DNA of 64,000 nucleotides from Candidatus Stahliibacteriota bacterium (GTDB lineage: Bacteria; Hydrothermota; Tepidihabitantia; B3-TA06): positions 42,264-106,263 of the forward strand of contig SOJW01000035.1 of the NCBI GenBank assembly GCA_004375895.1, in the 5' to 3' direction. A program made the translations under genes and the position numbers. Under the pieces are notes generated by a model that saw only the letters and a list, made by a program, of their open reading frames with translations, had not been told where the DNA came from and made no database searches. This document shows positions 44,745 to 60,067 of this stretch, piece by piece; positions within the stretch are counted from its first letter, which is position 1, and every line of letters starts with the position of its first letter.

Positions 44745-46304
44745 ATGCGAGAGGGTAGAGCATGCGCCTTGAGTTTTATCTTAATCTGTCTTGCAAGTTG
44801 CGGTCGTTCCTCCAAGCAAGAGACCAGCCTGCCGCTTGTGCTTTCCATCTCTGTGGACGGCGGGTTCAACGAATACTTCGACCTCACTGATAGTCTGCTT
44901 TATGGTGTTCGATTGGTTCAAACGGACAACGAAGAGTTTGGACTTATGCTTCGCCGGTTCTCACTGGCAGATTCAGGCATCTGCGACACACAGGTTTTTC
45001 CTTGTCCCTGCAAGGACTCCTCGGACTGGTTTTTCTATCCCGGCTTGCGGTTTGAGGTCAAATTATACGCCTCGGATCGCTACTTTGAACGCCTGCCGCA
45101 TCGAGGCTGGAAGCTTTTCCCCGTACCGCTGGGGGATACCTCAAATATGCTTTATCGGGGTGAAGTAATATCGTTCGTTCAGGATTATGTCTCTCAAGAA
45201 TCCTTCCAGAGCACTTTGCGCAGACGTTGGGAACATTTCTATATAATAGACATACACTCTGCGATCCCCCGAACAGTCGCCTGCGTCGAAGGAGAGGTTG
45301 TGGACGTTGCCGACCCATACCTTCTTTTACTATCAGGTTACGGTTACACCAATCAGTGTAACCGGGAAGTGGAGCCTACCCCAAGATACGTTCAAGGTTG
45401 CGAACTTATCCTTATAGATATGCGAGACATGCACGAGCTAGGACGTTTACCGGTAACGCTTGAAAACGACGCATGGGAGATATGGTATAGAGCCTGCTTG
45501 ACCCCTGACCATAAGCTGCTTTACACGGAGATGGTTGAGTGGCCTGAAGGCTGGCGTTATTTCCCAGGGATCGATAAGTTGGTTTCCGAAGAAGAGGTCT
45601 GGACTTCTGCCTGGTATAGATTCTTGGACGATTTTCCAGTGTTGCGATACTACATCCTGGAGCAGAGATCCGTGTTCATCTGGGACATTGACTCTGCAGA
45701 CGTATCCCGCAGCGAACTTCTTCTCCCTCTCGATGCGTTTAGCCCTTCTACCGGAAGATGTCTTGATAATGAGGGCAGGACTATATTCATCTCTCACCTG
45801 CAAGGCTGGGGATTTCACATATTCGAATACAAACCATCGTTCGTTCAGGTCCCAGCGATCTCTGATCTTTCCAGCACCCCTGAGGAACTCGGCTGGTGCA
45901 GAAAATTTGTACCCCCACTTTACAGAAGATTGTATTGGATGCTCTCGCCTGAAAGACGATGGCTGGCGGTGAGTACTGGCAGGGACGAGATAGTCCTTCT
46001 GCCAGCGTGTGAGCTTGCCGATCCCGAACTTAAAAGAAAGAAATTCCCAAAGATAAAATCGAATACGGTTGTGTATATAGATTTCGCACCCGGCGAGGAT
46101 TGGGTTCTTACAGGGAACCGTCCAGGTGCCGTTCCCCTTCTTTACGCCTGCGGTCAAGACAACCCTCCAATCTCTCTGCTTTCATCAAATGAGATAGACT
46201 TCCAGGAGGCCTTTTTCTCGCCCGACGGAAAGCATGTAGGTTACATCTGCCGTTTAGAAGGCGAGAACTACTATCGCCTTCAGGTACGCCGCCTCCCCCC
46301 GTAA
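44745..46304 (+). CDS. Hypothetical lipoprotein (519 aa)
   Basis: Lipobox ICLASC. Stop codon TAA lies inside a CCCCCCGTAACAC repeat. Confidence 0.5.
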   Translation: MREGRACALSFILICLASCGRSSKQETSLPLVLSISVDGGFNEYFDLTDSLLYGVRLVQTDNEEFGLMLRRFSLADSGICDTQVFPCPCKDSSDWFFYPGLRFEVKLYASDRYFERLPHRGWKLFPVPLGDTSNMLYRGEVISFVQDYVSQESFQSTLRRRWEHFYIIDIHSAIPRTVACVEGEVVDVADPYLLLLSGYGYTNQCNREVEPTPRYVQGCELILIDMRDMHELGRLPVTLENDAWEIWYRACLTPDHKLLYTEMVEWPEGWRYFPGIDKLVSEEEVWTSAWYRFLDDFPVLRYYILEQRSVFIWDIDSADVSRSELLLPLDAFSPSTGRCLDNEGRTIFISHLQGWGFHIFEYKPSFVQVPAISDLSSTPEELGWCRKFVPPLYRRLYWMLSPERRWLAVSTGRDEIVLLPACELADPELKRKKFPKIKSNTVVYIDFAPGEDWVLTGNRPGAVPLLYACGQDNPPISLLSSNEIDFQEAFFSPDGKHVGYICRLEGENYYRLQVRRLPP

Positions 46305-46491
46305 CACACACTCTTTGAGTCTTCGAGGGTGTAAGAACCTTGACTCTATGCTCCTCGTCGAATACAATCAAGGTAGAAATAACCACGGATTGCACAGATT
46401 TCACTGATTCAAGGATTCTAAATAAATCTGAGTAATCTGTGTAATCTGCGGTTTCACTTGACTAGTGCTTTATCGTCTACTACAATAGGGT

Positions 46492-47481
46492 ATGCGAATA
46501 GGAATCATCGGAGCCACCGGGCTGGTTGGGCGAACGACCTTGAAGATACTTGAAGAGAGGGGGTTTCCGGCATCGGAGCTTATCCTGTTTGCATCACAGC
46601 GCAGTGCGGGCGAGAAGATTCCCTTCAAGGGGAGCCAGGTGGAGGTGATGCCCATCAGTGATAACTGGGACCTTCTGGCCGATATATTCTTCTGCTCGGT
46701 TGCAGACGATGTGGCACAGGAACTGCTGAAGGACTACAAGGGCGAGGCATGGATCATAGATAAGTCCAAGGTGTTCCGGCTCGATCCAAAAGTTCCGCTG
46801 GTGGTACCCGAGGTAAACTGGGACGCGGTTGAGCGCTTGGACTCAAAGATCGTCGCCAACCCCAACTGCACCACCATCCCCTTCGTCATGGCCATGGCCG
46901 CTATCCGCAAGACGGCAAGACCTGAAAGGACGGTTGTTACATCACTTCAGTCCGCGTCCGGCGCGGGCAAGGCGGCGCTCGAAGAGCTGCGTCTGCAGCG
47001 AGAATATGTGACCGCAGGAGAGAAGATGCCTGAAGACGCAAGAGAGGTCTTCGGACCTACCCTTGCTGCCAACCTTATACCGCAGATCGGATCGTTTGAT
47101 AAGGCAGGCGAGGCATCCGAGGAGCGCAAGCTGAGAGATGAGTCGAGGAAAATCTTAGGAGACGAAACGTTATCTATCCATGCTACCTGTGTGCGGGTAC
47201 CGGTCGAGGTGGGACACTCACTTTCGGTGACATGCGTGTTCCAAGAGGAAGTGGGTTTGAAGGCAATCAAGAAGTCTATAGAGTCGTTCCCAGGCATCAA
47301 GATGATGGAAGGAGACGAGCTTATCACCCCCCTAGATGTTGCCGGAAAAGACGAGGTGTTCTGCGCAAGACTTCGGCACGATCCGATGGATAAGAAGGTT
47401 ATCCACCTCTGGCTCGTCACCGATAACCTTCGCAAGGGGGCTGCGCTGAACGCCGTGCAGATAGCCGAAAGTCTTATCTAG
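46492..47481 (+). CDS. asd: Aspartate-semialdehyde dehydrogenase
   Basis: MRIGIIGATGLVGR..., catalytic Cys in NPNCTTI. Confidence 0.9.
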   Translation: MRIGIIGATGLVGRTTLKILEERGFPASELILFASQRSAGEKIPFKGSQVEVMPISDNWDLLADIFFCSVADDVAQELLKDYKGEAWIIDKSKVFRLDPKVPLVVPEVNWDAVERLDSKIVANPNCTTIPFVMAMAAIRKTARPERTVVTSLQSASGAGKAALEELRLQREYVTAGEKMPEDAREVFGPTLAANLIPQIGSFDKAGEASEERKLRDESRKILGDETLSIHATCVRVPVEVGHSLSVTCVFQEEVGLKAIKKSIESFPGIKMMEGDELITPLDVAGKDEVFCARLRHDPMDKKVIHLWLVTDNLRKGAALNAVQIAESLI

Positions 47482-47563
47482 CCATCCAACCATTACCAAT
47501 TTACCCGTTATACAGCGTTTGCCCTATTGACACCTTTCTTTTCTTACGGTATATTTTTTATCC

Positions 47564-48526
47564 ATGTGGCTCGAGCGTGTCAAAAAAGCCCTTTCGGGGC
47601 GGATTTCCATTCTTATTGATGCCGGAAACCGCAACAAGGTAAGACGAATTGCCGCGCCCAGGTGGCTTTGCGCAACGATTTCTCTCCTCGTGATCTCGCT
47701 CGTAGTCGGTTTAGGTACTTATGGCCTGAAAAGTACGTTCTTCCACAACAAATTAAGCCGCCTGGAACGAGAAAATCAAGAGGTCCTGCGGCGATTTGCG
47801 GGTCTTGAAAAATCCACTGACTCTTTGACAACATTACTGGCTTACATGGACCGGCACGACATCCAACTCCGCATCCGGAAAGGTTTGGAAGTATTACCTG
47901 CAGATGTCCGCGAACTCGGTGTCGGTGGCTCTGTAATGAAAGGTCCTGAGATCACAGCCTTGCGTGAGATGAATAGCCCGTACTACTCTGACGTCAACAG
48001 AATCTCCGAAGAGATTGATGCACTACAGCGCAAAGCGAACTACCAAGCTGAAAGCTTTTCAGAGGTAGAAACCAAGCTCTTAAAGGACACCGAGATGTGG
48101 GATCACACCCCTTCGATCGTTCCCACCAGAGGTCGGTTCAGCGGCAAGTTCGGCTACCGCCGCGACCCGATCCTTGGCATCCGTAAGATGCACTGCGGGG
48201 TGGACATAACCAACAAGATTGAAACCCCTGTGATTGCTGCAGCAGACGGCGTGGTCTCGTTTGCCGGACGTCTTGCCGGATACGGCAACATGGTGAAGAT
48301 AAACCATGGTTACGAGATCCAGACGATCTACGCTCATCTCTCCGAGATCTATGTCGAGGTCGGTCAGGAGATCAAAAGATACGAAATAATTGCAGCCATA
48401 GGCAACACCGGCAGAACCGTAGGCCCGCACCTGCACTACGAGGTACGCGTGGCGGGCAAAACAGTCAACCCCGAAGGCTACTTCCTTGACGCCGAAGAAA
48501 ACCTGATCCAATACCCTATGCCTTAG
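47564..48526 (+). CDS. M23-family (LytM) peptidase with an N-terminal TM segment and coiled coil
   Basis: HCGVDI...AAADGVV...GNTGRTVGPHLHYEVR. Confidence 0.85.
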   Translation: MWLERVKKALSGRISILIDAGNRNKVRRIAAPRWLCATISLLVISLVVGLGTYGLKSTFFHNKLSRLERENQEVLRRFAGLEKSTDSLTTLLAYMDRHDIQLRIRKGLEVLPADVRELGVGGSVMKGPEITALREMNSPYYSDVNRISEEIDALQRKANYQAESFSEVETKLLKDTEMWDHTPSIVPTRGRFSGKFGYRRDPILGIRKMHCGVDITNKIETPVIAAADGVVSFAGRLAGYGNMVKINHGYEIQTIYAHLSEIYVEVGQEIKRYEIIAAIGNTGRTVGPHLHYEVRVAGKTVNPEGYFLDAEENLIQYPMP

Positions 48527-48530
48527 AGTT

Positions 48531-48575
48531 CCCCCCGTAACACCACAACACCGCAACACCGTAACACCGATTCCC
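48531..48575 (+). repeat. CCCCCCGTAACAC-(CACAACAC CGCAACAC CGTAACAC) 8-bp tandem repeats directly after the peptidase stop
   Basis: tag agtt ccccccgtaacaccacaacaccgcaacaccgtaacacc. Confidence 0.75.
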
Positions 48576-48753
48576 GTGTAAACGACTACTTTTTGCCGAC
48601 CGCAGAAAGTGAATAACTCAAATTGTGAAAAATCGGCAACCGACTAAATTCTATCAAAACGATAGCCTTTTGTGAATCCTTGATTGTGAAGGGTCTGTGA
48701 AATAGACTATTTAGCTCTTGACAACATACTCGGTTTGCTATATACTTATTGTG

Positions 48754-49707
48754 ATGTTCAAGCGTGTCATCTCCTGGCTGTTCAAGCGTATCAACTTCTT
48801 AATTGATGGGGGACCACGCGGTAAAGTAACGCGGCTGGCAATACCACGATGGGGATTATTGTCGGTTGCGGTCGCTTTCAGCCTCCTTATAGGCTTCGCA
48901 GGCCTCTTCATAACCTCTCGTGCCACGGAACAAATCGACTACGATAAACTGACCCGTCTTGAAGAAAACAATAAGCTCCTCGAGATTCAGTACCAACAGC
49001 TCAATGAACAGATCGATTCACTCAAGACCCTGCTTGTCCTACTTGGTAAGCACGACCTCCAACTTCGCGTCCAAGCCAATATGAGGGTCCTGCCGGAGGA
49101 TGTTCGCGAACTCGGCGTGGGCGGAGAAAAGAAAAAGGATAGGGAGCTGCTGGCATTAGAGCAGATAAAAAGCAAACAATATCAGGATGTAACCGAGATA
49201 TCCAACACCGTTGACGAACTCCTGCGCAAGGCAAAATATCAGAAGGAAAGCTTTGCAAATATCGGGGAGAAACTCAAGAAAAACAAGAATCTTCGAGATC
49301 ACACCCCATCGATTCGGCCTTGCAACGGCTGGCAGTGTAGTGGATTCGGTTACCGTATAGATCCCTTTACCAAGCGCCCAAGGATGCACAACGGCGTTGA
49401 CATCTCGAACGCTCCGGGAACACCTATCGTGGCGACCGCCGATGGGGTGATTTCATATATAGGTGCGCGTTCCGGTTACGGCCTGTGCATCAAGCTGGAT
49501 CACGGTAACGAGATCGAAACGTTCTATGCTCACGTGGGAGGTATATATGTAAAGCCGGGTGAGGAGGTATTACGCGGCCAGGTGATAGCAGTCATGGGAG
49601 CAACCGGACGCACAACAGGCACCCATCTGCACTACGAGGTAAGGGTAGGGGGTAAAGCGGTTAACCCGCTCAACTACATCATCGACGAAAGCGAATTCAG
49701 TTTCTAA
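48754..49707 (+). CDS. M23-family peptidase, tandem paralog
   Basis: HNGVDI...ATADGVI...GATGRTTGTHLHYEVR. A TTGACA-17-TATACT promoter at 48718-48746 makes the ATG at 48754 near-leaderless, so the start is uncertain. Confidence 0.75.
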   Translation: MFKRVISWLFKRINFLIDGGPRGKVTRLAIPRWGLLSVAVAFSLLIGFAGLFITSRATEQIDYDKLTRLEENNKLLEIQYQQLNEQIDSLKTLLVLLGKHDLQLRVQANMRVLPEDVRELGVGGEKKKDRELLALEQIKSKQYQDVTEISNTVDELLRKAKYQKESFANIGEKLKKNKNLRDHTPSIRPCNGWQCSGFGYRIDPFTKRPRMHNGVDISNAPGTPIVATADGVISYIGARSGYGLCIKLDHGNEIETFYAHVGGIYVKPGEEVLRGQVIAVMGATGRTTGTHLHYEVRVGGKAVNPLNYIIDESEFSF

Positions 49708-49711
49708 TCCG

Positions 49712-50347
49712 GTGCCTCGCTCAAAATCTTCCCTAAACACTGGAACACCCAAAAAGAAGGCAAGGAAAAGGGACGGACCTGCTTTGCAGGATCCAAAAGA
49801 ATCCCTAAACGAACGCCCAGCAAAAAAGTGGCAATGGGCATCCTGGAGGCAGTGGGTAAGAGCAGCGATTGCGATGGCCGCTGTTTTGCTACTGGATCAG
49901 ATCTCCAAGGTGCTTATCGTAGCCAACCTCGATCTTAATGAGTGGGTGACGTGGATCGATCCCGTGTTGAAGGTAACCCACGCCCACAACTACCGCGGGA
50001 TATTCAGCCTCTCCTTCGGCCCTCAGTGGCTTTACATAATCCTGCCGATGGTTGCGGTTGGATTTGTTATCTACCTTCTGCTTCGTCCGCAGCCTAAGTT
50101 TGTTACGGTACTTCTGGGACTGATCCTTGGCGGAGGCTTCGGCAACTTCATAGACCGAGTAAGACTGGGGTACGTGATTGACTGGATAAGCATGGGGGTT
50201 CGCACCTGGCGCTGGGCTACCTACAACATAGCCGACAGTTCCATAGTCATAGCTGTGATAATCCTCTTGATCACGGAGTTCTTCTTCACGAGACCCAAGA
50301 AGAAAGACGAACCCGAAGAAGCCGACCTCGAAGCAGAAAAGCCCTGA
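49712..50347 (+). CDS. lspA: Lipoprotein signal peptidase II, with an unusually long basic N-terminal extension or a mis-called start
   Basis: FGNFIDRVRLGYVIDWIS...YNIADSSIV. The true start may lie near 49874 or be a non-ATG codon. Confidence 0.75.
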   Translation: MPRSKSSLNTGTPKKKARKRDGPALQDPKESLNERPAKKWQWASWRQWVRAAIAMAAVLLLDQISKVLIVANLDLNEWVTWIDPVLKVTHAHNYRGIFSLSFGPQWLYIILPMVAVGFVIYLLLRPQPKFVTVLLGLILGGGFGNFIDRVRLGYVIDWISMGVRTWRWATYNIADSSIVIAVIILLITEFFFTRPKKKDEPEEADLEAEKP

Positions 50348-50898
50348 GACCCCTACCTCATCAACACAACCTTAACGGTGTGACCTTCTTCACCACCTCA
50401 AACCTGATCAAGTAAACCCCGGTCGAAACCCGCTCCCCTACATCGTCGGAGCCGTCCGCCGTTCCAAGCAGCTCCCAGTTTTTGCCTCTCCCGTGCAGTG
50501 CGGAATGATGGAAGCCTTATCTAAAGCAACGAGTTATGTCCGAGACACATCCACGTTCGACTTAACAGTTGTTCTTTGTCACCAATATCCTGAAGAACCA
50601 ACTCAGATTACCGCAGTTGCCCGCATCTATTTAGAGGTTCCTGTTCTTATGACCACAGAAAAATGTCCATGGTCAACACATCGTTGCCAAGCAAGAGGGG
50701 ATTGAGATCGTCGAGAAGGAGGGGGGGATGAAGCTTTCATCAATGTGAGTGTAACCCCGGTAACCATCTCCCCGCGCACGACCCCCCCCTTGACATTCAT
50801 GGATTCCCGCCTTATTATCCTCCAGATAGAGCCCTACGAGGTTTGTCTCGGAAATTTGGGAAGTTAGAAAAAAACAAACCGAATAGGAGCTTTTGCTC

Positions 50899-50926
50899 TT
50901 GACAAACTTTTGTCTGGCTCTATAAT
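50899..50926 (+). promoter_or_regulatory. TTGACA-16-TATAAT promoter for the lipoprotein gene
   Basis: Perfect hexamers, with RBS aaaggagg before the ATG at 50959. Confidence 0.65.
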
Positions 50927-50958
50927 ACTCGCACATGATTAAATTAAAGGAGGTGCAA

Positions 50959-51249
50959 ATGCACAAGCGACTTATCGTACTGGGTGTGCTGGTCGTCTTC
51001 GGACTTGGCTTGCTTGCGGGTTGCGGAGCCTCCAAGCAGTTAATCGCTGAGATGGAAGCCGCGTGTCAAGCAGCGGACGATGCCGAAGCCAGGCTTGCCA
51101 GCCTTGAGTCGCAGCTCCAAACTCTTCAGTCTGATAAAGCCGAAAAAGAGGCCCGCATCCAGGAACTAGAAGAAACGATCGCCGAGCTTGAGAGCGCTAA
51201 GCCATCCCGTGGTGAAGGCGGCAAGCCCGCGCGAGCCACAGTAAAGTAG
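50959..51249 (+). CDS. Small coiled-coil lipoprotein (Lpp-like architecture)
   Basis: Lipobox LLAGC followed by heptad-rich LASLESQLQTLQSDKAEKEARIQELEETIAELE. Confidence 0.55.
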   Translation: MHKRLIVLGVLVVFGLGLLAGCGASKQLIAEMEAACQAADDAEARLASLESQLQTLQSDKAEKEARIQELEETIAELESAKPSRGEGGKPARATVK

Positions 51250-51257
51250 GAGGACCC

Positions 51258-51845
51258 ATGGCGAAGAAGATTCTCATTCTATTGACAGTGGGTCTGGTTC
51301 TGTTCGCGGGTGTGGCCTATGGCGCCAGGATGAAGAAAAAGGACGCGGAAACGCAGCTAGAGACCTGCAACATCCGTGAGGCGGCTGCTGAAGAAGGAAT
51401 CGGCAACATTGATCCTAAAGTAAACGCCTTAAAGGACGAGGTGGCTGCTCTGGACACCAAGATTGCCGAGCTTGAAGCGCGTCTTGCCGAGCTCGAGGCA
51501 GAGCCTCGCTACTGGGGCCGTTACACCGTTAAGTCCGGTGACTATCTCTACAAGATCGCTGCAGATGAATACGTCTACCATGACGGCTCCAAGTGGCCGG
51601 CAATCTACGAGGCAAACAACGACATCATCTCCGATCCGAATCTGATCTATCCGGGCTGGGTACTCTTTATACCCGGCGTCAACGAATGGAAAGTGAAGTC
51701 GGGTAACTGGCTGTGGAAGATCGCCAACTCTGTAGCGGTATACGGAGACGGCTCCAAGTGGCCGGCAATCTACGAGGCAAACAAAGATCAGATTAATGAT
51801 CCGGACCTGATCTATCCGAACCAAGTCTTTGTTATTCCGCGTTAA
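51258..51845 (+). CDS. Protein with an N-terminal TM segment, a coiled coil and two LysM-like domains
   Basis: Two copies of YTVKSGDYLYKIA...YPGWVLFIP / WKVKSGNWLWKIA...YPNQVFVIP. Confidence 0.7.
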   Translation: MAKKILILLTVGLVLFAGVAYGARMKKKDAETQLETCNIREAAAEEGIGNIDPKVNALKDEVAALDTKIAELEARLAELEAEPRYWGRYTVKSGDYLYKIAADEYVYHDGSKWPAIYEANNDIISDPNLIYPGWVLFIPGVNEWKVKSGNWLWKIANSVAVYGDGSKWPAIYEANKDQINDPDLIYPNQVFVIPR

Positions 51846-51909
51846 GCGCAACATGATTGTTGAGGGGAAGACGAATTAGTCTTCCCCTCTTCCCATCTTC
51901 CATTGACCC

Positions 51910-52848: not shown

Positions 52849-54934
52849 GCTGTTTCTCGCCGCATCGGCTATAGCGGTGCTTGCGACCCTAAACCTGGCG
52901 CCGCTTCTCTCACCGCCTCCTAAAATGGAGTATGCCGATGGTGATGTGGTAGAGAAGGATCTCTACGCTCCAATCTCCTTTCCCCTTCCAAAGGACTCAA
53001 CCCGTCTCGTGGCCGAGCAAGACAGTGCCGCAGCAGGGATTCTACCTATCCTTGCTCTGAAGGAGGAAGTCGAGACCAAGTGGCGGCAGACCTTGCGAGA
53101 CCTGCGCACCTCTGACTCGATAGCCAGTGAACTCCATTTAGAGAAACGCGAACTGCTCAGCTCGAAACTGCTTGCCTCCGCAGACAGCGTCGTAGAGGTG
53201 ATTAGCTCCCAAGGCTACTTCCGAGAGAAAGAAGACCTTGCCGCACGCAAGGTAGTCGTCCTTATGGGAGAGGTGGAGATAGGGGAATCTTTAGACAACA
53301 TACTGGGCTTCTGGGACGCTGACACACTGATTGAGAACTCAGCCCGACGCCACTTCACCGCAGATAAACAAAGGGCAGCCCTACTAACAGATATACTCAG
53401 ACGGATCGTTCTGCCCAACCCGAATCTGGTGTATGACAGCGAGGAAACCGAGGCAAGATGCGAAGCTGCACGGAACCGCGTAAGCCCGTATGAGGGATTC
53501 GTTGAACGGGGAGAGTTGATAGTCGAGGCCAACAGCCGTATCGACCCCCTGACCCTTAAGAAAATCGCTGCCCTTAACGCGGAGATAGAGGGCAACTGGA
53601 GATTGAAAATCCAGCTCTTCATCCGCCAGAATCTTCTCTTCATATTAATCCTTTTGGGCCTGGGATTATGTCTTTACCTCTTAAGACGTGAGCCCGAGGT
53701 TCGTGAGTTCCTTTATGTGACAACGTTACTGGTGCTTGGGCTTGCCGCAAGCCTTATCCTGCGACGCTTCTCCATCTGGTGGTTCGTTCCAACCGGCTTT
53801 GTGGCACTAGCCGTCGCCATGTTTCTTGGGCCCCTTGAAGGAATTCTCCTGGCAGGTATCACCTCCATTCTGATATACCTTCCCTGGCAGACTGAGCCGG
53901 AGTATCTTCTTTACGCGCTCCTTTCAGGCTCAGGCGCCCTGCTTGCTTTGCCTTTAATGCATCGCCGCATAGGGTTCGTTGCATCCTTCGGTTTCATACT
54001 CGGTGGAGGAATCATTGCGCGGGGAATCTTCATCCTGACCAAGGTCAACTTCTCGCTTCGTGAACTACCCGTATTGGGATTGGAGGCGGGTATAAATTCT
54101 GCAATCAACTTCGCATTCCTTGCAGCCGCGTTCTTTGCCGCAGAACGTCTATTTGGCTTCACCTCAACCCTTACCCTTGCGGAGCTTGCCGACCTCAACA
54201 AACCGCTGCTCAAGGAACTCTCCCTCAAGGCAACCGGAACATATCACCACAGCGTACTTGTGGGCAGCCTTGCCGAACGCGCCGCCCGGGTAATTGGAGC
54301 CAATCCGGCCCTGGTCCTTGCAAGCGGCTACTATCATGACATAGGCAAGACGGCCAAACCCCAGTACTTTATAGAAAACCAACTGGACGAAGAAAACCCT
54401 CATGATGGGCTCAAGCCTCGTATGTCCGCCTTGATCCTCGCAAACCACGTCAAAAAAGGTCTGGTGATGGCAGGACGTTACCGGCTGCCGCGTCTCATCC
54501 GCGATATAGTGGCCCAGCATCACGGAACCACACGGATGGAGTATTTTTATCGCAAGCATCTTGAGACCAAGGATGCAGAATCCGTACCAGAGGAGGTCTT
54601 CCGTTACCCCGGGCCAAAACCTCAAACCAAGGAGGCGGCGTTGGTGATGCTTGCAGACTCGGTTGAGGCGGCTGTACGCGCCCATGGATTTACAGACCGT
54701 GATGACCTGGAAAGATTCATAAAGGAGATAATAAACGACAAGGTCGCGGACGGTCAGCTGGATGAGTGCCACTTCACCACATCAGACATCCACGAGGTAC
54801 GTAAGGTCTTCACCTCGACCCTTATTGGAATCTTTCACCCAAGAATCCGTTATGAGAAAAAGAATAACGCTACTAGCCCCAGGAAGAATTCAAAGAAAAG
54901 CAGCCCTGCGAAGACTCGTAAAAAGCGTTCTTGA
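52826..54934 (+). CDS. 7TM-receptor with intracellular HD-hydrolase domain (YqfF-like)
   Basis: Extracellular N-terminal domain, seven TM helices, and an HD domain (HHSVLVGSLA...YYHDIGK). Confidence 0.85.
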   Translation: MIRKNLRRLFLAASAIAVLATLNLAPLLSPPPKMEYADGDVVEKDLYAPISFPLPKDSTRLVAEQDSAAAGILPILALKEEVETKWRQTLRDLRTSDSIASELHLEKRELLSSKLLASADSVVEVISSQGYFREKEDLAARKVVVLMGEVEIGESLDNILGFWDADTLIENSARRHFTADKQRAALLTDILRRIVLPNPNLVYDSEETEARCEAARNRVSPYEGFVERGELIVEANSRIDPLTLKKIAALNAEIEGNWRLKIQLFIRQNLLFILILLGLGLCLYLLRREPEVREFLYVTTLLVLGLAASLILRRFSIWWFVPTGFVALAVAMFLGPLEGILLAGITSILIYLPWQTEPEYLLYALLSGSGALLALPLMHRRIGFVASFGFILGGGIIARGIFILTKVNFSLRELPVLGLEAGINSAINFAFLAAAFFAAERLFGFTSTLTLAELADLNKPLLKELSLKATGTYHHSVLVGSLAERAARVIGANPALVLASGYYHDIGKTAKPQYFIENQLDEENPHDGLKPRMSALILANHVKKGLVMAGRYRLPRLIRDIVAQHHGTTRMEYFYRKHLETKDAESVPEEVFRYPGPKPQTKEAALVMLADSVEAAVRAHGFTDRDDLERFIKEIINDKVADGQLDECHFTTSDIHEVRKVFTSTLIGIFHPRIRYEKKNNATSPRKNSKKSSPAKTRKKRS

Positions 54935-55232
54935 CGCCCAGGGCTGCAACAAGCGGGTTAATATCGTGTTAACGGACGACGAAACGCTTAGAGATTTAAA
55001 TGAACGCTTCAAGGGGCGCAAAGGACCCACCGACGTCCTGGCATTTGACTTTGAGGAGCCGGATTTCCTTGGAGAGGTCTACGTGTCCCTCGATCGCGCC
55101 CGCGAACAAGCTCTAGACTACGGTGTAAGCGAGGAAGAAGAGATAGAAAGGCTCGTACTTCACGGCCTGCTGCATCTTTTGGGATACCCCCACACACAGA
55201 TGGAACCAATAATGAAGCGGTACCTGGGATGA
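54852..55232 (+). CDS. ybeY: rRNA maturation endoribonuclease YbeY
   Basis: H-x3-H-x5-H: HGLLHLLGYPH. Start placed at the internal Met. The ORF overlaps the tail of the HD-domain gene. Confidence 0.8.
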   Translation: MRKRITLLAPGRIQRKAALRRLVKSVLDAQGCNKRVNIVLTDDETLRDLNERFKGRKGPTDVLAFDFEEPDFLGEVYVSLDRAREQALDYGVSEEEEIERLVLHGLLHLLGYPHTQMEPIMKRYLG

Positions 55233-55241
55233 TTATCTAAG

Positions 55242-56471
55242 ATGATCCCGATTCTTACGACCATCCTTATCCTGCTTGTAGCAAGCGCCTTCTTCTCAAG
55301 TGCGGAGACCGCATACTTCTCCATCTCGCCGCTGCGCAGCGCACAGCTGGGACAGGCAGGGCTCGTGCGCTGGCTGCTCTCATCACGCGACCGGCTTCTG
55401 GGAACAATCCTTTCAGGCAACCACATCGTCAACTTCACCGCCACCGCCCTCTGGACAACACTACTCATAATGGCATCAAAGCGTTGGGGGTGGAATGAAA
55501 CCGAGACCCTCTCTATAGGTGCGGCTTTAATGGTTGTAACGCTTCTTATCCTAGGCGAGATAACACCCAAGATTGTTGCGGTAAGACTGCCGATGAAAAT
55601 TGCCAGGCTCTATGCGCCTGTATTGATATTCTTCTGGTGGCTATTCTTCCCCCTAACCTGGGCTCTCTCCTCCCTCTCCAGATTGATCTTCCGAGGCCGC
55701 CCCAGAGAACGCCCCTTTCCCACGGACGAGGAGGTCAAAACCATGATCGAGATGGCGGTGCGTTACGGCATACTTCGCCCACAGGAGGAACAGATCATGG
55801 AGAATCTTGTGGATCTGGGCGAACGCACAGTAAGTGAGGTGATGACCCCGCGTGTAGGGATGAGTGCCCTGCCTGTCAATACAAGTCGTTACAAAGCGCT
55901 TGCCTACGTCAAACGGACACATAAATCTCGTTACCCGATCTACGAGGACACCACCGACAAGATAGTTGGGGTGCTCTACACCAAGGATCTGATTGTAGCC
56001 CCAAAGCGCACCTCCATCAGGAGGCTTCTACGCGAGCCTTACTTCGTGCCTGAAACCAAAGTCCTTTCAGAGCTTCTGGAAGAGCTGCGGCGCTCCGATC
56101 AACATATAGCCATAGTGGTGGACGAGTTCGGCGGTATCGCAGGCCTGGCGACACTTGAGGATATACTCGAGGCAATCTTCGGTGAGATTGTGGACGAGTA
56201 CGACACCGGGGTTCCCTACAAACGCCTTGGCCGCGGGAGATACCTTGTAGACGGCGATATAGACCTGGCCAAACTCAACGAGTTTTTTGACGATGCCTTC
56301 GCAGAAGCAGAGGATGAGTTCGACAGGCTCTCCGAACTCATAACACACGAGCTGGGACACATACCGAAGCGTGGGGAGAAGATGAGCTACAAGGGGATTG
56401 ATCTTACTATGCGAAGTGTGAGACGCCTGCGTATAGAAAAGGTTCTGCTGGAACAAAAGAGGACCAAGTGA
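55242..56471 (+). CDS. CNNM/CorC-HlyC family transporter (DUF21-CBS pair-CorC_HlyC)
   Basis: N-terminal DUF21 TM domain, CBS pair, C-terminal transporter-associated domain. Confidence 0.85.
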   Translation: MIPILTTILILLVASAFFSSAETAYFSISPLRSAQLGQAGLVRWLLSSRDRLLGTILSGNHIVNFTATALWTTLLIMASKRWGWNETETLSIGAALMVVTLLILGEITPKIVAVRLPMKIARLYAPVLIFFWWLFFPLTWALSSLSRLIFRGRPRERPFPTDEEVKTMIEMAVRYGILRPQEEQIMENLVDLGERTVSEVMTPRVGMSALPVNTSRYKALAYVKRTHKSRYPIYEDTTDKIVGVLYTKDLIVAPKRTSIRRLLREPYFVPETKVLSELLEELRRSDQHIAIVVDEFGGIAGLATLEDILEAIFGEIVDEYDTGVPYKRLGRGRYLVDGDIDLAKLNEFFDDAFAEAEDEFDRLSELITHELGHIPKRGEKMSYKGIDLTMRSVRRLRIEKVLLEQKRTK

Positions 56472-57394
56472 CGCTTCTTTTAGGTATACTCTTCATATTT
56501 ATCCAGGGCTTCTTTTCCGGTTCGGAAACGGCCTACGTGGTGGCGAACCCGGTGAGGGTAGCTCATCTTTCTAAGAAAACCCGCAGACAGGAAAAGGCTA
56601 TAGAGCTCTTAAACAACCCCGAACTCCTACTGGTAGCCACCCTTATAGGAACCAACATCGCGGTTGTCCTCTCAGGGTTGTTCCTCACCGCCTTCTTCGT
56701 GGATCAACTCAACGAAACCTTGGGAACGATCGTGGCTATCATCGTAGGTGTGCTGGCAGGATTGCTGCTCGGCGAGTATCTGCCCAAGAATCTGGCCCGG
56801 TTGAACGCAGAGCAAGTGGTGATAGCTACCTCTCCTTTCTATTCCGTGGCGATAGTGCTTTCAAAACCCTTCAGAAGACTCTTTCGTCGCCCTAAGAGAA
56901 AGGAGAAAAGAGGCGAACGTCTCTCCATCACACGGCTGGATATGCTCACCGCACTGAGACTCGGCGAAAAGATTGGGAGTATAGAAGAAAAAACCTCACC
57001 TCGCGTCGCCAACCTCTTCAGTGCATTCGACACCCCCCTTGGTGACGTGATGACCCCGTGGGATCGTGTGGTAACGCTGAAGACCGGCACCAAACGTGGC
57101 AATATCCTTAAGGTGATTGAGCGGGAGGGATTCACACGTTACCCTGTTTTGAATCGCCGCACCGGACGCATCAAGGGCATCCTGCACGCCAAGGACCTTC
57201 TGCGGGAAAAACCCAGATTGAGCAAGCCCTTCTTCACCACGCCGGGCGCTCGCATCACCGAACTTCTGCGCACCATGCAGAACAACCGGGCGCACATGGC
57301 GATCGTTTTAGACAGAGAGGATAAGCCTGTAGGGCTTGTCACCCTCGAGGACCTGCTTGAGGAGTTCGTTGGCGAGATCCGCAGCGAGGAATAA
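56468..57394 (+). CDS. Second DUF21-CBS membrane protein (paralog, shorter)
   Basis: GTG start overlapping the upstream TGA. DUF21 plus CBS pair. Confidence 0.75.
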   Translation: MTLLLGILFIFIQGFFSGSETAYVVANPVRVAHLSKKTRRQEKAIELLNNPELLLVATLIGTNIAVVLSGLFLTAFFVDQLNETLGTIVAIIVGVLAGLLLGEYLPKNLARLNAEQVVIATSPFYSVAIVLSKPFRRLFRRPKRKEKRGERLSITRLDMLTALRLGEKIGSIEEKTSPRVANLFSAFDTPLGDVMTPWDRVVTLKTGTKRGNILKVIEREGFTRYPVLNRRTGRIKGILHAKDLLREKPRLSKPFFTTPGARITELLRTMQNNRAHMAIVLDREDKPVGLVTLEDLLEEFVGEIRSEE

Positions 57395-57585
57395 CCTTCA
57401 CCCCACCAGGCTACTTCGTATCCTGGCGGGGACCCCGACGTAAATCCTCCTTTTTCCCTGCGGGAAAAAGATCGGAGAGGGGAGAATGTAGAGAGGTAGG
57501 GGCACGGCATACCCTATGAGCGTATGAACCGCTCAAGGGGCACGCTGTGCCGTACCCATACTTTCTATCTCCATAGGAAGTCAGG

Positions 57586-57650
57586 AATGCCCCGAAGGGG
57601 AAACGGTGTTTTACGGGTGGTGTTACGGGTACGGGTGTTACGGGGGGGGC
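57586..57650 (+). repeat. GTTACGG/hairpin element copy (GAATGCCCCGAAGGGG + GTTACGG repeats) abutting a promoter
   Basis: gaatgccccgaaggggaaacggtgttttacgggtggtgttacgggtacgggtgttacgggggggg, followed by TTGACA-16-TATGAT at 57651-57678. Confidence 0.75.
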
Positions 57651-57876
57651 TTGACATATCCCTAAATCTTCCTATGATAATTATAGAGGTCTTTATGGGT
57701 CGGATGGAACTCCTATATGCTCAATTCCAACACATAAAAGAGGACGTCACTAACGCAAAGACAGGGTGGGAGATCGGTGTAAACCCCCGACTCTTACTCT
57801 TTAAACCAAGAGCCAACCCGGCAGGATGGTTTCTGAAAAAGCCATTCCGCAGGGGAAAATAAAAAGGAGGACATAA

Positions 57877-59910
57877 ATGCTTAAAAAACTCATCCTGCTG
57901 ACGGCGGTGTTTGCGATAGCCGCCTTTGCGGTGGTTGGTCCTGTTAAGGTACCGGAAGGGGTGGAAGTCGGTTTTGCCCCTGTCCTGCCCCTGAGGGACG
58001 ATCCAATAACCCCTGTCTCATCTATCTCATCCGGCACGGCCGTGCTTTTGACCGAAGGAGAACAAGCCGGCGTCACCACCTACGATTATCAGCAGAACGG
58101 TGCGATGGGCAACCGGATTGCGGTGGATGATAGTGGATACATTCAGCTCTGCTGGATGCACTCGGAAGACGAACCTTCATCCTTCCCTCCTTCCTTCCCG
58201 AATCGTGACATCTACTACAACGTGTGGGGAGAGACTGGTGGTTTCGTCTGGCCTGACGGCCAGAAGGCATCGGGTGAGCCCCGTGCAGGTTACACTACGA
58301 TGGGCTTGCTTTCTGACGATCGGGCTGTAGTTGCGTTCCACCATACTCCGACTGCTAATGTCTCAGCCGTTGTAGTTGATGCTATCCCCCGGTTTGGTGC
58401 ATTCAGTTCACCGGTTGATGTTGATCCCATCACCGTCCCTGAGCAGCCGATCTGGCCGCATATCGTTGTGGGAGCGGACGATGTGATCCACGTTACCGCT
58501 CACATCTCTCCGGCTGATCCGGCAAACCCGCCTGACAACGTTGACTATCTCTACTACTCTCGTTCCACCGATGAAGGGCAAACCTTCTCCGAGTGGAAAG
58601 TCATCACCCAGACCGCCGGCAGCGACGCTGCCATCGCGGTATCTAAGGACGGCAGCAAGGTTGCCATAGCCTGGATGGACGCTTTCCCAATCGAAGGTAT
58701 AGACTGGAGAAGGGCTATGAGCGGTAACATAAAGTACGTGGAGTCTACGAACAGCGGTGCAAGCTGGAGCGCTCCTGTGAACGTCACGGCGGATTACTAC
58801 ACTCAGGAGCCGGTACCCAACAGCAGTGAGGAAGGCATGTGGTGGGGTGCCTGGTACCGTGATCTTGATTGTGCCTACGACGCAGCCGGCAATCTCCACA
58901 TCGGTTGGGGAGAAGGGTTGATGGCCTACGAAGTGCACGGCGAGCCTCCCAATGATAGCCTCTTTTTCTGGTCGATGCATAAACATTTCCTTAGAATGGT
59001 CCATTGGAGTGAGGTTACCAACAAGCGCAACATTGCTTCCGGCCCCTACAGCCAGTTCGTTCCTCTAACCGAGGAAGGTGACACCATCTGGGATATATAC
59101 GGCTTCTACTTGTGGGGAATCCGTGAAAGGATACAGAACTATTACAGTCCGGGTCTTGGCTGCTGGAATCCGCAGCTTGCCGCTATAGGCTCGGGCGACG
59201 ACATGGTCTTCACCTGGCAAGGCCAGTGGGATTCTCTTGACGTCAACGCGGGCGGAGCCATCAACGCCGACATCTATGCCGCAATCTCCACTAACGGCGG
59301 TGCAACATGGGGTGGAGTCGCAGATTGGACTGAGAGCGAGTTCGACGAAAATGGTTTCGGCTTGGTTGCCTACGCCACTAACCTTACAAACACACACAGC
59401 CCTGGTGCCAGGATCGGCGATTGTGAAAGCGAGGAGTACCACTCCGTCTACCCATGGATTGGCGAAGATAGCATCCTTCACATAACCTATGTCAAGGACC
59501 TTTTCTCTGGATCTGTCGTTCAGAAGGTTCCTACCGGTGGAATCTCAACCAGAAACCCGGTGATGTATCTGGGCAGCGAGGTGTATGTAGGCGACGGCCC
59601 GGAACCCACGCCACAACCAGAATCAACATCTGTTGCGGAAGCCCCTCGTGATGAAACCCCCCTCATCACGCTCCTCGGCCAGCACCCGGTCGCCAACTCC
59701 GTGGTCTTCAGCGTAAGCGCACCTGGTACTCATGCCTGGCTGAAGATCTACGACGTTGCCGGCAAACTGGTTGAGACGGTCTTTGAAGGCACGCTCGATG
59801 GCACCCGCATGCTTACCTGGGACGCGTCAGCGACGCCTGCCGGTGTCTACTTCTACTCATTCGTCACGCCTGCACATACCGCGAGCGGTCGAGTGGTGAT
59901 TATAAGGTAG
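57877..59910 (+). CDS. BNR/sialidase-like repeat protein with a T9SS C-terminal sorting domain
   Basis: Signal peptide. BNR motifs STDEGQTFSEW, STNSGASWSAP, STNGGATWGG. C-terminus ...AWLKIYDVAGKLVETVFEG...GVYFYSFVTPAHTASGRVVIIR. Confidence 0.7.
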   Translation: MLKKLILLTAVFAIAAFAVVGPVKVPEGVEVGFAPVLPLRDDPITPVSSISSGTAVLLTEGEQAGVTTYDYQQNGAMGNRIAVDDSGYIQLCWMHSEDEPSSFPPSFPNRDIYYNVWGETGGFVWPDGQKASGEPRAGYTTMGLLSDDRAVVAFHHTPTANVSAVVVDAIPRFGAFSSPVDVDPITVPEQPIWPHIVVGADDVIHVTAHISPADPANPPDNVDYLYYSRSTDEGQTFSEWKVITQTAGSDAAIAVSKDGSKVAIAWMDAFPIEGIDWRRAMSGNIKYVESTNSGASWSAPVNVTADYYTQEPVPNSSEEGMWWGAWYRDLDCAYDAAGNLHIGWGEGLMAYEVHGEPPNDSLFFWSMHKHFLRMVHWSEVTNKRNIASGPYSQFVPLTEEGDTIWDIYGFYLWGIRERIQNYYSPGLGCWNPQLAAIGSGDDMVFTWQGQWDSLDVNAGGAINADIYAAISTNGGATWGGVADWTESEFDENGFGLVAYATNLTNTHSPGARIGDCESEEYHSVYPWIGEDSILHITYVKDLFSGSVVQKVPTGGISTRNPVMYLGSEVYVGDGPEPTPQPESTSVAEAPRDETPLITLLGQHPVANSVVFSVSAPGTHAWLKIYDVAGKLVETVFEGTLDGTRMLTWDASATPAGVYFYSFVTPAHTASGRVVIIR

Positions 59911-59974
59911 GTGAAACGGGGTCGGATGGCGGGAAGTCCCGGGGCTCCCAGGCTCCTCCTTCTCGGGACTCCCG

Positions 59975-60018
59975 CCCCCCGTAACACCGTAACACCGTAA
60001 CACACCGCAACACACCCA
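59975..60018 (+). repeat. CCCCCCGTAACACC 8-bp tandem repeats after the gene stop and before the next promoter
   Basis: cgccccccgtaacaccgtaacaccgtaacacaccgcaacacaccc, then TTGACA at 60023. Confidence 0.75.
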
Positions 60019-60067
60019 CCCCTTGACAAGGTTCCAAAAAAGCCTACACTCTTTTAGGAGGTTGTGT

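Follow-up and report, generated by a model that had tools for sequence, protein, structure and literature searches.

A short tandem repeat family carried across a clade of WOR-3 bacteria and a 57-nt mini-element found within its unit

The GTTACGG/CCGTAACAC sequences scattered through the stretch of DNA analysed here (the window, 64 kb in full) are one family of dispersed short tandem repeats, which is clade-wide in WOR-3 ('Stahlbacteria'). The family is of the known STRR- or MIRU-like kind, with an 8/9-nt unit. It is probably a selfish or neutral, slippage-prone repeat family, the positions of which mark where insertions are tolerated rather than a designed terminator or promoter switch.

The window contained 13 matches to CCCCCGTAACAC with at most one mismatch, against 0.33 ± 0.53 in shuffled sequences, and its commonest 9-mer was CCGTAACAC, with 18 copies. 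The same word was also the top 9-mer in L117, a related locus chosen without bias. The basic unit was GTGTTACGG (CCGTAACAC on the opposite strand), its variants measuring 6 to 10 nt, and the same unit stood head-to-tail at unlinked loci, the family occupying 11 loci of the window. A G/C homopolymer run often closed the intergenic copies, and such runs flanked the arrays at 46295, 48531, 57605 and 59975. Among the related loci, which were picked by a pattern demanding two adjacent units, the same units occurred in at least eight WOR-3/Stahlbacteria MAGs, with dozens of loci per MAG sample. The 9-nt form was concentrated in these MAGs; 8-nt GGTGTTAC arrays were also found in Bacteroidota, Fimbriimonadaceae and phage contigs, and GTTACG-rich hairpins were present in two phage families. 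In a search of the window and eight related loci with Rfam covariance models, only tRNAs reached the gathering score, the arrays matching no known RNA family.

Arrays between genes and beside promoters

The arrays lying between genes or at gene ends, together with the adjoining features, were as follows.

46295-46311, + strand: C6 run and GTAACACACAC, i.e. one GTAACAC unit with an (AC)n tail, read directly
48531-48569, + strand: C6 run and four 8-bp units, GTAACACC, ACAACACC, GCAACACC and GTAACACC, read directly
57470-57604, + strand: 135-nt mosaic insert without counterpart in the DAOVCF ortholog, from alignment and repeat pairs I5, I15 and I17
57605-57649, - strand: array of irregular units, GGTGTTTTACGGGTGGTGTTACGGGTACGGGTGTTACG, G-rich on the + strand (GGTGTTTTACGG, GTGGTGTTACGG, GTACGG, GTGTTACGG) and with a G8 end, read directly
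57651-57678, + strand: sigma-70-type promoter TTGACA-16-TATGAT of the T9SS-cargo gene 57877-59910, conserved in DAOVCF
59975-60022, + strand: C6 run, GTAACACC twice, GTAACACA and CCGCAACACA (units of 8, 8, 8 and 10 bp), then CCCACCCC, read directly
60023-60050, + strand: promoter TTGACA-16-TACACT of the lipoprotein gene starting at ATG 60068, conserved in all five orthologous loci

The four arrays had been singled out in a preliminary description, and all four could be read in the sequence as it had them. The TAA at 46302-46304, inside the unit, is indeed where the 519-aa gene 44745-46304 stops, in agreement with an independent gene call in L001. Four other genes, in related genomes, finish with the same ..CCG TAA CAC.. 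arrangement, so that the TAA of the unit serves as the stop of five different genes in four genomes. All five 'edge' arrays that overlap a gene 3' end were in the C-sense and supplied the TAA stop, and in L097 units of 9, 9 and 10 nt bring a TAA in frame after ..RNTRNTP. The array at 48531 begins 4 nt (AGTT) past the TAG stop (48524-48526) of gene 47564-48526, as had been claimed, and the assignment of this gene as an M23 peptidase was backed by Pfam; the sequence of 48531-48569 was identical in L001 and L002, two other assemblies of the same strain.

The array at 57605 does lie directly upstream of its promoter, a single C separating the G8 end from the -35 box. In the ortholog DAOVCF010000051 two indels, of 5 nt and 2 nt, leave this array 7 nt shorter beside an unchanged promoter; an additional new array follows the stop of the CNNM gene there. 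The 135-nt insert is made of other dispersed modules, and its end is formed by the right-hand hairpin of the mini-element described below, GAATGCCCCGAAGGGG (57585-57600), which adjoins the array. The array at 59975, which was said to follow a BNR/T9SS gene and to run into a -35 box, passes straight into the TTGACA at 60023, and gene 57877-59910 has a T9SS sorting domain of type A (TIGR04183; 23.6 bits, the cut-off being 23), but no BNR domain was detected in this gene, and the array starts 65 nt past its stop (59908-59910), with a conserved hairpin (about 59926-59973) in between. The G-rich strand of the arrays is stop-free in every frame, which gives rise to spurious ORFs such as 57524-57862.

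That arrays stand next to promoters was borne out on a larger sample, in which they were over-represented beside -35 boxes: in a set of 106 arrays, 16, from about 9 independent loci, finished 0-11 nt upstream of TTGAC[AT]-N15-19-TAnnnT, with about 1 expected, an adjacency about 10 times that predicted from pattern density and roughly 5 times by our own estimate allowing for the intergenic location. The promoter-side arrays were always upstream of the -35 box and never in the -35/-10 spacer, and thus unit gain or loss cannot alter the core promoter spacing, contrary to what had been proposed; orthologs of differing unit number shared an identical promoter. These arrays have stayed in place beside orthologous promoters of 3 to 5 species, with a copy number that drifted. 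They occurred in either orientation, and the genes behind them, including a T9SS-cargo gene, a lipoprotein gene and a Crp-family regulator, had no common theme. Arrays abutting a -35 box may have a modest effect on promoter strength. The 9-mer arrays are G3N6 repeats, and they account for 3 of the 8 strict G4 motifs that the window contains; the 8-nt arrays have G2 runs only.

A role of the arrays as intrinsic terminators, which would have given them the suggested influence on termination, was rejected, since no terminator-like site (a G+C-rich stem-loop plus a T-run) was found overlapping or adjoining any array. The arrays are direct repeats without self-complementarity.

Arrays inside genes and changes in unit number

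The placement of the repeat exactly at gene 3' ends and beside promoters did not hold as a rule: 7 of the 11 window loci were in frame inside genes (KsgA, TatD, PolA, a NUDIX gene, a CMD-family gene and a glycosyltransferase), as were about half of the roughly 100 arrays examined, coding and intergenic arrays being told apart by crude ORF calls. The boundary positions of arrays are better explained as places where insertions are tolerated. The 9-mer occurred in genes in every open frame. The copies within genes were as follows.

11136-11145, + strand: single unit near the 5' end of PolA, CCGTAACAC at 11137
11998-12009, - strand: single in-frame unit in PolA (11051-13531), with 2 units in L069 and 3 in L117
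14042-14053, - strand: single unit in the NUDIX gene (13757-14167), kept in L117
15171-15183, + strand: CGTAACACC and CGTA, two units read as R-N-T-R in TatD (14973-15842); the mini-element splits the second one
16137-16199, - strand: in-frame array in KsgA/RsmA (15835-16674), encoding CVTGVTGGCVTGVTGKGVTG directly before the catalytic GNLPY motif
35486-35512, - strand: one and a half units in the CMD-family gene (35131-35526, minus strand), at its N-terminus or leader
63914-63941, - strand: in-frame array GGGGTACGGGTACGGGTGTTACGGGTG in the glycosyltransferase gene

By alignment to 3TQS, the KsgA insert corresponds to the loop before motif IV, and in T9SS-cargo proteins arrays were located in a loop and a linker. 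At the site of the glycosyltransferase array, L120 has three perfect 9-mers. The match in the NUDIX gene may be a chance likeness in ordinary coding sequence. The coordinates given earlier had left out the copies at 11137, 11998, 14042, 15171-15301, 16137-16199, 35486-35512 and 63862-63941. A fast-changing, hyper-abundant 9-base repeat of a candidate phylum, lying in frame in PolA, KsgA and TatD, provides a record of insertion-tolerant protein loops.

The repeats had also been taken to be slippage-prone, and the comparison of copy numbers agreed with this, orthologous loci differing by exact units at 59975, in PolA and in KsgA. With identical flanks, the 59975 locus had 2 units in L120, 3 in L121 (a strain about 96% identical) and DAOVCF, 4 in the window and 5 in L119. 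The intergenic block around it was 93% conserved versus 77.5% for the neighbouring gene. The orthologous PolA site had 1, 2 or 3 units, and KsgA homologs with proteins 85-100% identical had 0 to 8 units at the insert point. In TatD, states with no unit, one unit, two units, and units plus the mini-element were interleaved on the tree, and an intermediate state, KDA+RNTRNT, was found. Such whole-unit gain and loss between close relatives is the pattern expected of slipped-strand mispairing or unequal exchange. Slippage covers growth and shrinkage of arrays, not the presence of the same 9-mer at so many independent sites, which number in the hundreds. Two TatD sisters of equal length and 88% nucleotide identity carry AAGGACGCA and CGTAACACA, respectively, and so differ in 5 of 9 nt, with AAG exchanged for CGT among the changes; from the sequences, the difference looks like a block replacement rather than point mutation or a simple insertion.

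In arrays confidently assigned to CDS, 63 of 64 unit spacings were divisible by 3, versus 34 of 70 in intergenic arrays. The coding arrays are therefore no frameshift switches. For the typing of uncultured WOR-3 populations directly from metagenomes, the arrays supply numerous VNTR-style markers. They are also likely to cause assembly breaks, because several lie at contig ends (L048, L077 and L102).

The 57-nt mini-element

A mini-element with two hairpins was present in the following copies within genes of the window.

15184-15240, - strand: copy A, 57 nt, in frame in TatD with the peptide ..PSGHSHNYSELTLRSQGNN.., 96% match to 63858-63925 (pair I2)
15248-15294, - strand: second TatD copy, shortened to 47 nt without hairpin 1 and followed by the half unit ACACACC (pairs I12 and I25)
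63864-63920, + strand: 57-nt copy, in frame within the glycosyltransferase gene, which lies on the minus strand (63251 to beyond 63913), and placed in the TA of a GTGTTACGG unit

The copy in the glycosyltransferase gene is absent from L121 and L120, and comparison with the empty site (GTGTGT-TA-CGGG) gave the filled site as GTGTGT-TA-[55 nt]-TA-CGGG, with the same junctions in TatD. The mini-element thus inserts into the TA of the repeat unit with duplication of the TA. Full copies were, without exception, bounded by unit-like sequence, GTGTTAY... at one end and ...TACGG GTGTTACGG at the other. The two hairpins recurred in nine copies taken from several species, with some compensatory changes. 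In TatD, unit-only states were phylogenetically wider than mini-element-bearing states, which indicates that the mini-element entered pre-existing arrays.

Insertion at TA with duplication is shared with TA-targeting MITEs of the IS630/Tc1-mariner type, but terminal inverted repeats matching those of a parent were lacking: on the consensus, the ends agreed by eye at only about 7 of 13 positions, and no parent element was found. The two subterminal hairpins differ from each other, and the junction can be read as 3' of GTGTTA, the TA being ambiguous. In hairpins, ends and junction its architecture would be compatible with an IS200/IS605-derived element (PATE); among IS200/IS605-type elements, IS608 targets TTAC. 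No Y1 or other transposase gene was found within the window, a weak search for Y1/TnpA (approximate query, no positive control) of the WOR-3 DNA surrounding arrays, about 430 kb in all, detected none, and no multi-copy transposase-like ORFs were found near arrays. A mini-element aimed at one specific repeat unit represents a compact two-tier case, a mobile element living on a repeat.

Explanations and related systems

Under the reading that we favour, the arrays would be selfish or neutral DNA and their positions would be set by purifying selection, which would leave them three kinds of refuge. One would be the short dead zone from a stop codon or terminal hairpin to the next -35 box. Another would be the very 3' end of genes, since in one of its frames the C-rich strand reads CCG TAA, which would simply end the protein, and the last would be protein loops and linkers, where only unit lengths in multiples of 3 would survive. 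The arrays may in turn act as a target platform for the mini-element, by analogy with the use of REP or dRS3 repeats by particular IS elements or phages. Sites already resembling the unit, e.g. CCGGGTAAT in the empty TatD site, seem to be where new arrays form, and short block replacements may be a further source. Some observations run against this reading: the excess beside -35 boxes and the retention across species could reflect function at promoters, the intergenic 59975 block is more conserved than the neighbouring gene, and the related 8-nt arrays in Bacteroidota and in two phage families hint at a trans-acting factor.

The promoter data, in particular, could be taken to mean that the arrays are a promoter-proximal cis-element (a TF or nucleoid-protein site, an upstream promoter element or a G-quadruplex), with copy number as a rheostat rather than an on/off control and the genic copies as spill-over. 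The adjacency to promoter patterns, the persistence at orthologous promoters and the share of 9-mer arrays among the strict G4 motifs all speak for it. Repeat tracts upstream of promoters are known to tune expression in other systems, as 7-bp repeats reportedly do at hmw1A of Haemophilus. We nevertheless hold this explanation to be unlikely: the majority of arrays are away from promoters, those at promoters take both orientations and share no theme downstream, the 8-nt arrays have G2 runs only, hypervariable copies within PolA, KsgA and TatD are hard to square with a regulatory site, and neutral insertions would in any case survive in the dead zone between stop and -35 box. Quite improbable, in our judgement, are contingency loci, in which unit gain or loss would switch or modulate particular genes via termination, read-through or promoter geometry. 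Although unit-number polymorphism is real, the unit can give or take away a stop codon (as in L097) and homopolymer C/G runs lie beside the intergenic arrays, neither a frame switch nor a spacer switch was found, the coding spacings keeping the frame, the -35/-10 spacer never holding arrays and no terminators occurring at arrays; C-run slippage at 46295 would only lengthen a C-terminal tail, and the affected genes include the core housekeeping genes PolA, KsgA and TatD rather than typical surface-antigen genes.

The units might instead be actively seeded by a process that favours 9-mer DNA, such as an uptake signal like USS/DUS, biased repair or gene conversion, or HUH/Y1-type cutting and rejoining at TGTTA|C. 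Consistent with this are the rank of the 9-mer as commonest in the genome sample and its presence in genes in every open frame, the block replacement without change of length in TatD, independent gains that recur at one site, the GTTACG-rich hairpins in two phage families, and a mini-element which, by analogy, may resemble IS200/IS605 types in lacking clear terminal inverted repeats and having subterminal hairpins and a junction 3' of GTGTTA. Uptake signals, however, are neither tandem nor hypervariable, and the searches for transposases and for multi-copy transposase-like ORFs described above were negative, so that we regard such a process as decidedly doubtful. We give only a small chance to the proposal that the 9-mer, instead of being a passive microsatellite, is the substrate of a sequence-specific enzyme or drive (e.g. 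HUH/Y1-type nick-and-rejoin at TGTTA|C, or biased conversion or uptake) that would seed units chromosome-wide, including in essential genes; a related trans-acting factor would then recognise the Bacteroidota 8-nt GGTGTTAC arrays and the phage GTTACG hairpins. It is highly improbable that the units are footprints or terminal repeats of the mini-element, left on its deletion and spread by it: unit-like sequence does lie on both flanks of every full copy, but the empty site in L121 already has an intact unit, to which insertion adds only the element and a TA, unit-only states are far commoner than element-bearing ones in TatD and KsgA, and most arrays have no mini-element nearby.

Among known systems, the STRR heptamers of heterocystous cyanobacteria are reportedly a short tandem unit at many dispersed loci. 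STRR are mostly intergenic near gene ends and are also found within the functional gene rnpB. The present family is like them in having one short tandem unit at dispersed loci, and it may likewise be specific to one lineage. Its unit of 8/9 nt, unlike the 7-nt STRR unit, has another sequence and belongs to another phylum, and it differs further in its many in-frame housekeeping copies, its unit-step polymorphism and its unit-targeting mini-element. The MIRU/VNTR of mycobacteria are said to be dispersed tandem repeats of strain-variable copy number. Shared with MIRU are intergenic location, overlap of the upstream stop codon and copy number varying by strain; MIRU units, however, measure 40-100 bp and occupy a few dozen intercistronic sites in one orientation, whereas the WOR-3 units are of 8-9 bp, in both orientations and about half in coding sequence. 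Contingency loci of Haemophilus, Neisseria and Campylobacter are similar in their slipped-strand-type unit change and in that some tracts lie upstream of promoters, but theirs are locus-specific tracts that shift the frame or change the -35/-10 spacer, while here the frame is kept, the arrays are upstream of -35 and one unit is used genome-wide.

IS1397 inserts in REP, and Nf phages in dRS3. REP/BIME and the neisserial dRS3/NIME are accordingly comparable as short repeats after gene ends that form mosaics with small modules and offer a specific landing site for a mobile element; their units are palindromic or inverted repeats, whereas the WOR-3 unit is a direct tandem and not self-complementary. 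A relation to the REP/RAYT type is not indicated, the unit not being palindromic and no RAYT-type gene having been found in the window or, by the same weak search, in the about 430 kb of WOR-3 DNA. As a hairpin-forming miniature insert in frame in conserved proteins the 57-nt mini-element resembles the RPE of Rickettsia, and in its flanking duplicated TA it resembles Correia elements and IS630-type MITEs; it is much shorter than RPE and Correia elements (57 nt versus 100-155 nt), has no convincing terminal inverted repeats and targets one 9-mer rather than any TA. The USS/DUS are likewise 9- to 10-mers, the most over-represented word of their genome, and lie in tolerated coding frames and after gene ends, but they occur singly or as inverted pairs, whereas the WOR-3 arrays are hypervariable direct tandems.

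Distribution of the repeat within the window and across WOR-3

The repeat represents a clade-wide, hypervariable and dispersed family of 8/9-nt tandem repeats, accompanied by a mini-element that targets those repeats. Direct reading of the sequence confirmed all four sites of the preliminary description (46295, 48531, 57605 and 59975) as described there, and the family reached beyond them and into genes. The arrays (tandem units, GTTACGG on the G-rich and GTAACAC on the C-rich strand) and smaller unit loci considered here are the following.

11137 and 11998: one or two units in PolA
14042: one or two units in a NUDIX gene
15171-15301: units and two copies of a hairpin element in the TatD gene (14973-15842)
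16137-16199: array in the KsgA/RsmA gene (15835-16674), in frame as CVTGVTGGCVTGVTGKGVTG, directly ahead of the catalytic GNLPY motif
35486-35512: one or two units in a CMD-family gene
46295-46311: C6 run, then GTAACACACAC; ORF 44745-46304 ends with the TAA at 46302-46304
48531-48569: C6 run and four 8-bp units, starting 4 nt past the M23 peptidase gene, which ends in TAG
57605-57649: irregular G-rich array ending in a G8 run, with TTGACA-16-TATGAT one base further on
59975-60022: C6 run and four units, running into TTGACA-16-TACACT
63862-63941, minus strand: hairpin element and array in a glycosyltransferase gene

The stop at 46302-46304 was also used in an independent gene prediction for a public contig that is nearly identical. 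The gene preceding the 59975 array, previously labeled BNR/T9SS, was found to encode a T9SS sorting domain, but no BNR domain was detected; moreover, the array starts 65 nt past the stop of this gene, with a conserved hairpin in between. Within the window, 13 matches of CCCCCGTAACAC at ≤1 mismatch were found against 0.33 expected, and the commonest 9-mer was CCGTAACAC; the abundance of the motif is far above chance. Seven of the 11 unit loci lie inside genes (coding fraction of the window, ~0.85). An artefact was ruled out, since independent assemblies repeat the arrays and conserved genes stay in frame; the window was 99.995% identical to the public MAG contig GCA_030588455.1 and 100% identical to a Logan assembly.

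When one genome of each species was scanned, two adjacent units occurred at many loci in at least eight MAGs named "candidate division WOR-3" or "Candidatus Stahlbacteria", together with scattered single matches, as chance predicts in 596 Gb. Some of the WOR-3 loci shared synteny with the window (78-90% identity), and the KsgA and TatD homologs carrying NCBI names were from WOR-3. The gene content of the window was that of ordinary chromosomal genes, and Pfam scans of ~50 ORFs detected no transposase. The contigs of several MAGs start or stop within an array (loci L048, L077 and L102), suggesting that short-read assemblies are broken by these repeats.

Copy-number change and placement of the arrays

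A metagenome search with the conserved sequences on either side of the 59975 array as anchors, combined with genome matches, yielded five versions of this locus having 2, 3, 3, 4 and 5 units. The versions differed by exactly 8 bp per step, or by 10 bp in one comparison, and neither the hairpin upstream nor the promoter downstream was changed. One of the three-unit versions was from a strain ~96% identical to the window. Between the 57605 array and its ortholog there were differences of 5 nt and 2 nt; in addition, the ortholog has a two-unit array directly past the CNNM gene stop that is missing from the window. At one codon of PolA, three species carried 1, 2 or 3 units, and KsgA proteins of 85-100% identity contained 1, 2, 3, 4, 5, 6 or 8 VTG-type units, while more distant WOR-3 proteins contained none. 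In TatD, many lineages have RNTP (one unit, CGTAACACC) or, with two units, RNTRNTP in place of the ancestral KDAP, and the states were interleaved on a neighbor-joining tree, indicating that units were repeatedly gained and lost at a single site. An intermediate state, KDA-RNT-RNT-P, was also found, suggesting insertion followed by deletion. The length polymorphism whose absence would have spoken against the preliminary description was thus present, as orthologous loci differ by whole units. L001 and L002 match the window at 99.995-100% identity, and L117 and L118 do not differ from each other, so that these loci are uninformative on polymorphism within a strain.

About 100 arrays from the window and 49 WOR-3 loci were classed by crude ORF calls. 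The 96 arrays classed comprised 36 intergenic ones, 54 inside ORFs and 6 overlapping an ORF end; hence the earlier placement of the repeat at gene 3' ends and promoters held for some arrays, including five at 3' ends, but not for the majority within ORFs. In the confident coding arrays, the unit-to-unit spacing was a multiple of 3 (9, 12, 15 or 18 nt) in 63 of 64 cases, whereas this applied to only 34 of 70 in the intergenic arrays, where 7, 8, 10, 11 and 13 nt were common. This contrast indicated that the process behind the arrays yields units of various lengths, with the reading frame acting as a filter.

None of the three frames of the G-rich strand contains a stop, and one frame of the C-rich strand contains TAA. 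Gene 3' ends accounted for five of the six edge arrays, and these five genes were all C-sense and ended in ...CCG TAA (the window, L038, L024, L097 and L044); in the L097 gene, two 9-nt units are read as RNTRNT, after which a 10-nt unit puts TAA in frame. The KsgA insert was aligned to the loop ahead of motif IV in a solved KsgA structure, and the T9SS-cargo paralog family carries arrays in the sorting-domain loop as (CYG)n and in the linker as (PVT)n. Where arrays persist is probably shaped by selection.

The mini-element and the origin of new units

Many arrays were flanked by a conserved module which reads, in the G-rich orientation, GTGTTA-TGTCCTTGTGA-[CGGAGCGTAAGCTCCG]-AATAATTATGAGAAT-[GCCCCGAAGGGG]-TA-CGGG. 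Its copy in the glycosyltransferase gene was absent in the ~96%-identical strain and in a further relative, and comparison of the empty site GTGTGT-TA-CGGG with the filled site GTGTGT-TA-[55 nt]-TA-CGGG indicated that the mini-element inserts into the TA of a unit, adding 57 nt and thereby keeping the reading frame. The TatD copies had the same junctions. Both hairpins were kept in nine copies from several species, with some compensatory changes. As the unit-only states of TatD are far more widespread than the element-bearing ones, it follows that the mini-element entered pre-existing arrays. The site originally delimited as 57586-57650 takes in the right-hand hairpin of such a module, which terminates a 135-nt mosaic insert (57470-57604) absent from the ortholog.

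With regard to its nature, the TA duplication fits a TA-targeting MITE, although no convincing terminal inverted repeats were found on the element; the subterminal hairpins, and a junction that can also be read as insertion 3' of GTGTTA, fit a derivative of the IS200/IS605 type. A local tblastn search of ~430 kb of WOR-3 loci gave no match to an IS200/IS605 TnpA, a weak result, as the search had no positive control. In a similarly weak test, the only multi-copy ORFs near arrays were the T9SS-cargo paralog family and orthologs, with no IS-like genes among them.

As for the units themselves, the empty TatD site (GCACCGGGTAATTAT) is already unit-like, and new units could possibly arise by nucleation at such near-cognate sequences, by microhomology-guided copying from other arrays, or by an active sequence-specific process. 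Of two sister TatD genes, equally long and 88% identical, one has AAGGACGCA and the other CGTAACACA; these differ at 5 of 9 nt, and the stretch is variable in general.

The closest known analogues of the repeat family are the cyanobacterial STRR and the mycobacterial MIRU/VNTR loci. It resembles REP and dRS3 repeats in being an insertion target, and the mini-element resembles RPE elements in its in-frame insertion; none of these systems is a full match. The literature searched made no mention of tandem 16-mers of the repeat, and the titles and abstracts of the WOR-3 papers did not refer to repeats.

Promoter association, related arrays and other repeats

The arrays had been described as positioned to affect termination, readthrough or promoter spacing. 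No terminator-like structure coincided with any array. Sixteen of 106 arrays (~9 independent loci) end 0-11 nt upstream of TTGAC[AT]-N15-19-TAnnnT, against ~1 expected from pattern density, and the enrichment was still roughly five-fold, by our own estimate, after allowing for intergenic location. These arrays, in either orientation, were always upstream of the -35 box, so that changes in units leave the core promoter spacing unaffected, and the sequences downstream of the boxes were unrelated to one another. The association may stem from the short neutral stretch that separates a gene end from the following promoter, or may be a real upstream effect. The preliminary interpretation was supported in part, with respect to copy-number variation but not to termination or promoter spacing.

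Other functions were also considered. At Rfam gathering scores, only tRNAs were identified among known RNA families in the window and eight related loci. A G-quadruplex was rejected as a general property, because only 9-nt arrays of at least 3-4 units qualify and 8-nt arrays fail. An inverton, in which the inverted arrays at 57605 and 59975 flank an invertible segment, was set aside, since promoter and gene would flip together and the other arrays are direct.

Around these two arrays, the promoter at 57651 and the T9SS-cargo ATG are separated by a ~200-nt leader (57679-57876), which begins with a segment (GGTCTTTATGGGTCGGATG..) kept in the ortholog and has no Rfam match. A spurious ORF (57524-57862) spans the 57605 array and the leader. 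The block 59913-60383 (hairpin, array, promoter and lipoprotein gene start) was 93% identical to locus L119, and the adjoining T9SS-cargo gene (58022-59904) only 77.5%.

Outside WOR-3, 8-nt arrays (GGTGTTAC)n with graded variants, some paired with inverted arrays, were found in many Bacteroidota MAGs and in a Fimbriimonadaceae MAG, at the following loci.

Bacteroidota MAGs: L017, L029, L036, L041, L065, L068, L092, L101
Fimbriimonadaceae: L022, L075, L095, L114

They reach ~14 perfect units, with variants such as GGCGTTAC and GGCATTAC; inverted arrays follow in L041, and the two arrays of L068 form an inverton-like inverted pair ~200 nt apart. Viral contigs (IMG/VR, L124-L228) gave 105 matches against <10 by chance, a rough estimate of our own. 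Two phage families (V1 and V2) have intergenic hairpins with arms of GTTACG-type arrays (e.g., L157:3860-4010 and L144:4650-4790) and 2-4 copies of GTTACG per kb, and the hairpin of one family is placed upstream of a gene for a ParB-like nuclease/DNA methyltransferase; V1 and V2 contigs had no sequence in common with WOR-3 DNA beyond the arrays. Their contigs also carry TGTTACGG iterons spaced by ~10 bp. The Mu-like viral contig L182 (2987-3907), whose metagenome of origin also yielded a WOR-3 relative, carries GVTGVTGGPGVTG, a VTG array in frame near the C-terminus of a MuB-like ATPase. Viral matches encoding collagen-like GVT repeats were regarded as coincidental.

The window seems generally to reflect a genome rich in 9-nt intergenic repeats. 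Other tandem 9-nt units, CACAGATTA, AACACGGAG and CACAGATTG (13546-13572, 13660-13745 and 46384-46448), each precede inverted copies of themselves, with which they form long array-built hairpins. A second dispersed, intergenic family of REP-like appearance (13578-13640, 31396-31424, 33153-33230 and 41188-41244) consists of ~55-nt double palindromes (TATGGAGTGCAAC..GTTGC|GCAAC..GTTGCACTCCAAA). A third family of hairpins (21840-21886, 22443-22486, 33308-33398 with two in tandem, 43750-43795 and 57399-57438) has the form GGGGTCCCCGCG..stem-loop..CGTGGGGTG directly past gene ends, the stem varying in sequence with pairing kept, and may represent terminator or REP-like modules; in the ortholog locus DAOVCF010000051, a GTAACAC array lies directly ahead of one such hairpin. 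Six tandem 11-bp units (AAAAGKTGGAC, 43674-43740) upstream of the gene starting at 43863 share their period with the DNA helix, as iterons or operator arrays would. Tandem paralogs without Pfam matches were found at 25-924 and 1968-3053 and at 3967-5016 and 5165-6247, the latter pair having a common 278-nt stretch of 87% identity, and a promoter-like repeat at 982-1036 and 6307-6361. The next most over-represented word of the window was AGCTTGCCG / CGGCAAGC (10 and 19 copies).
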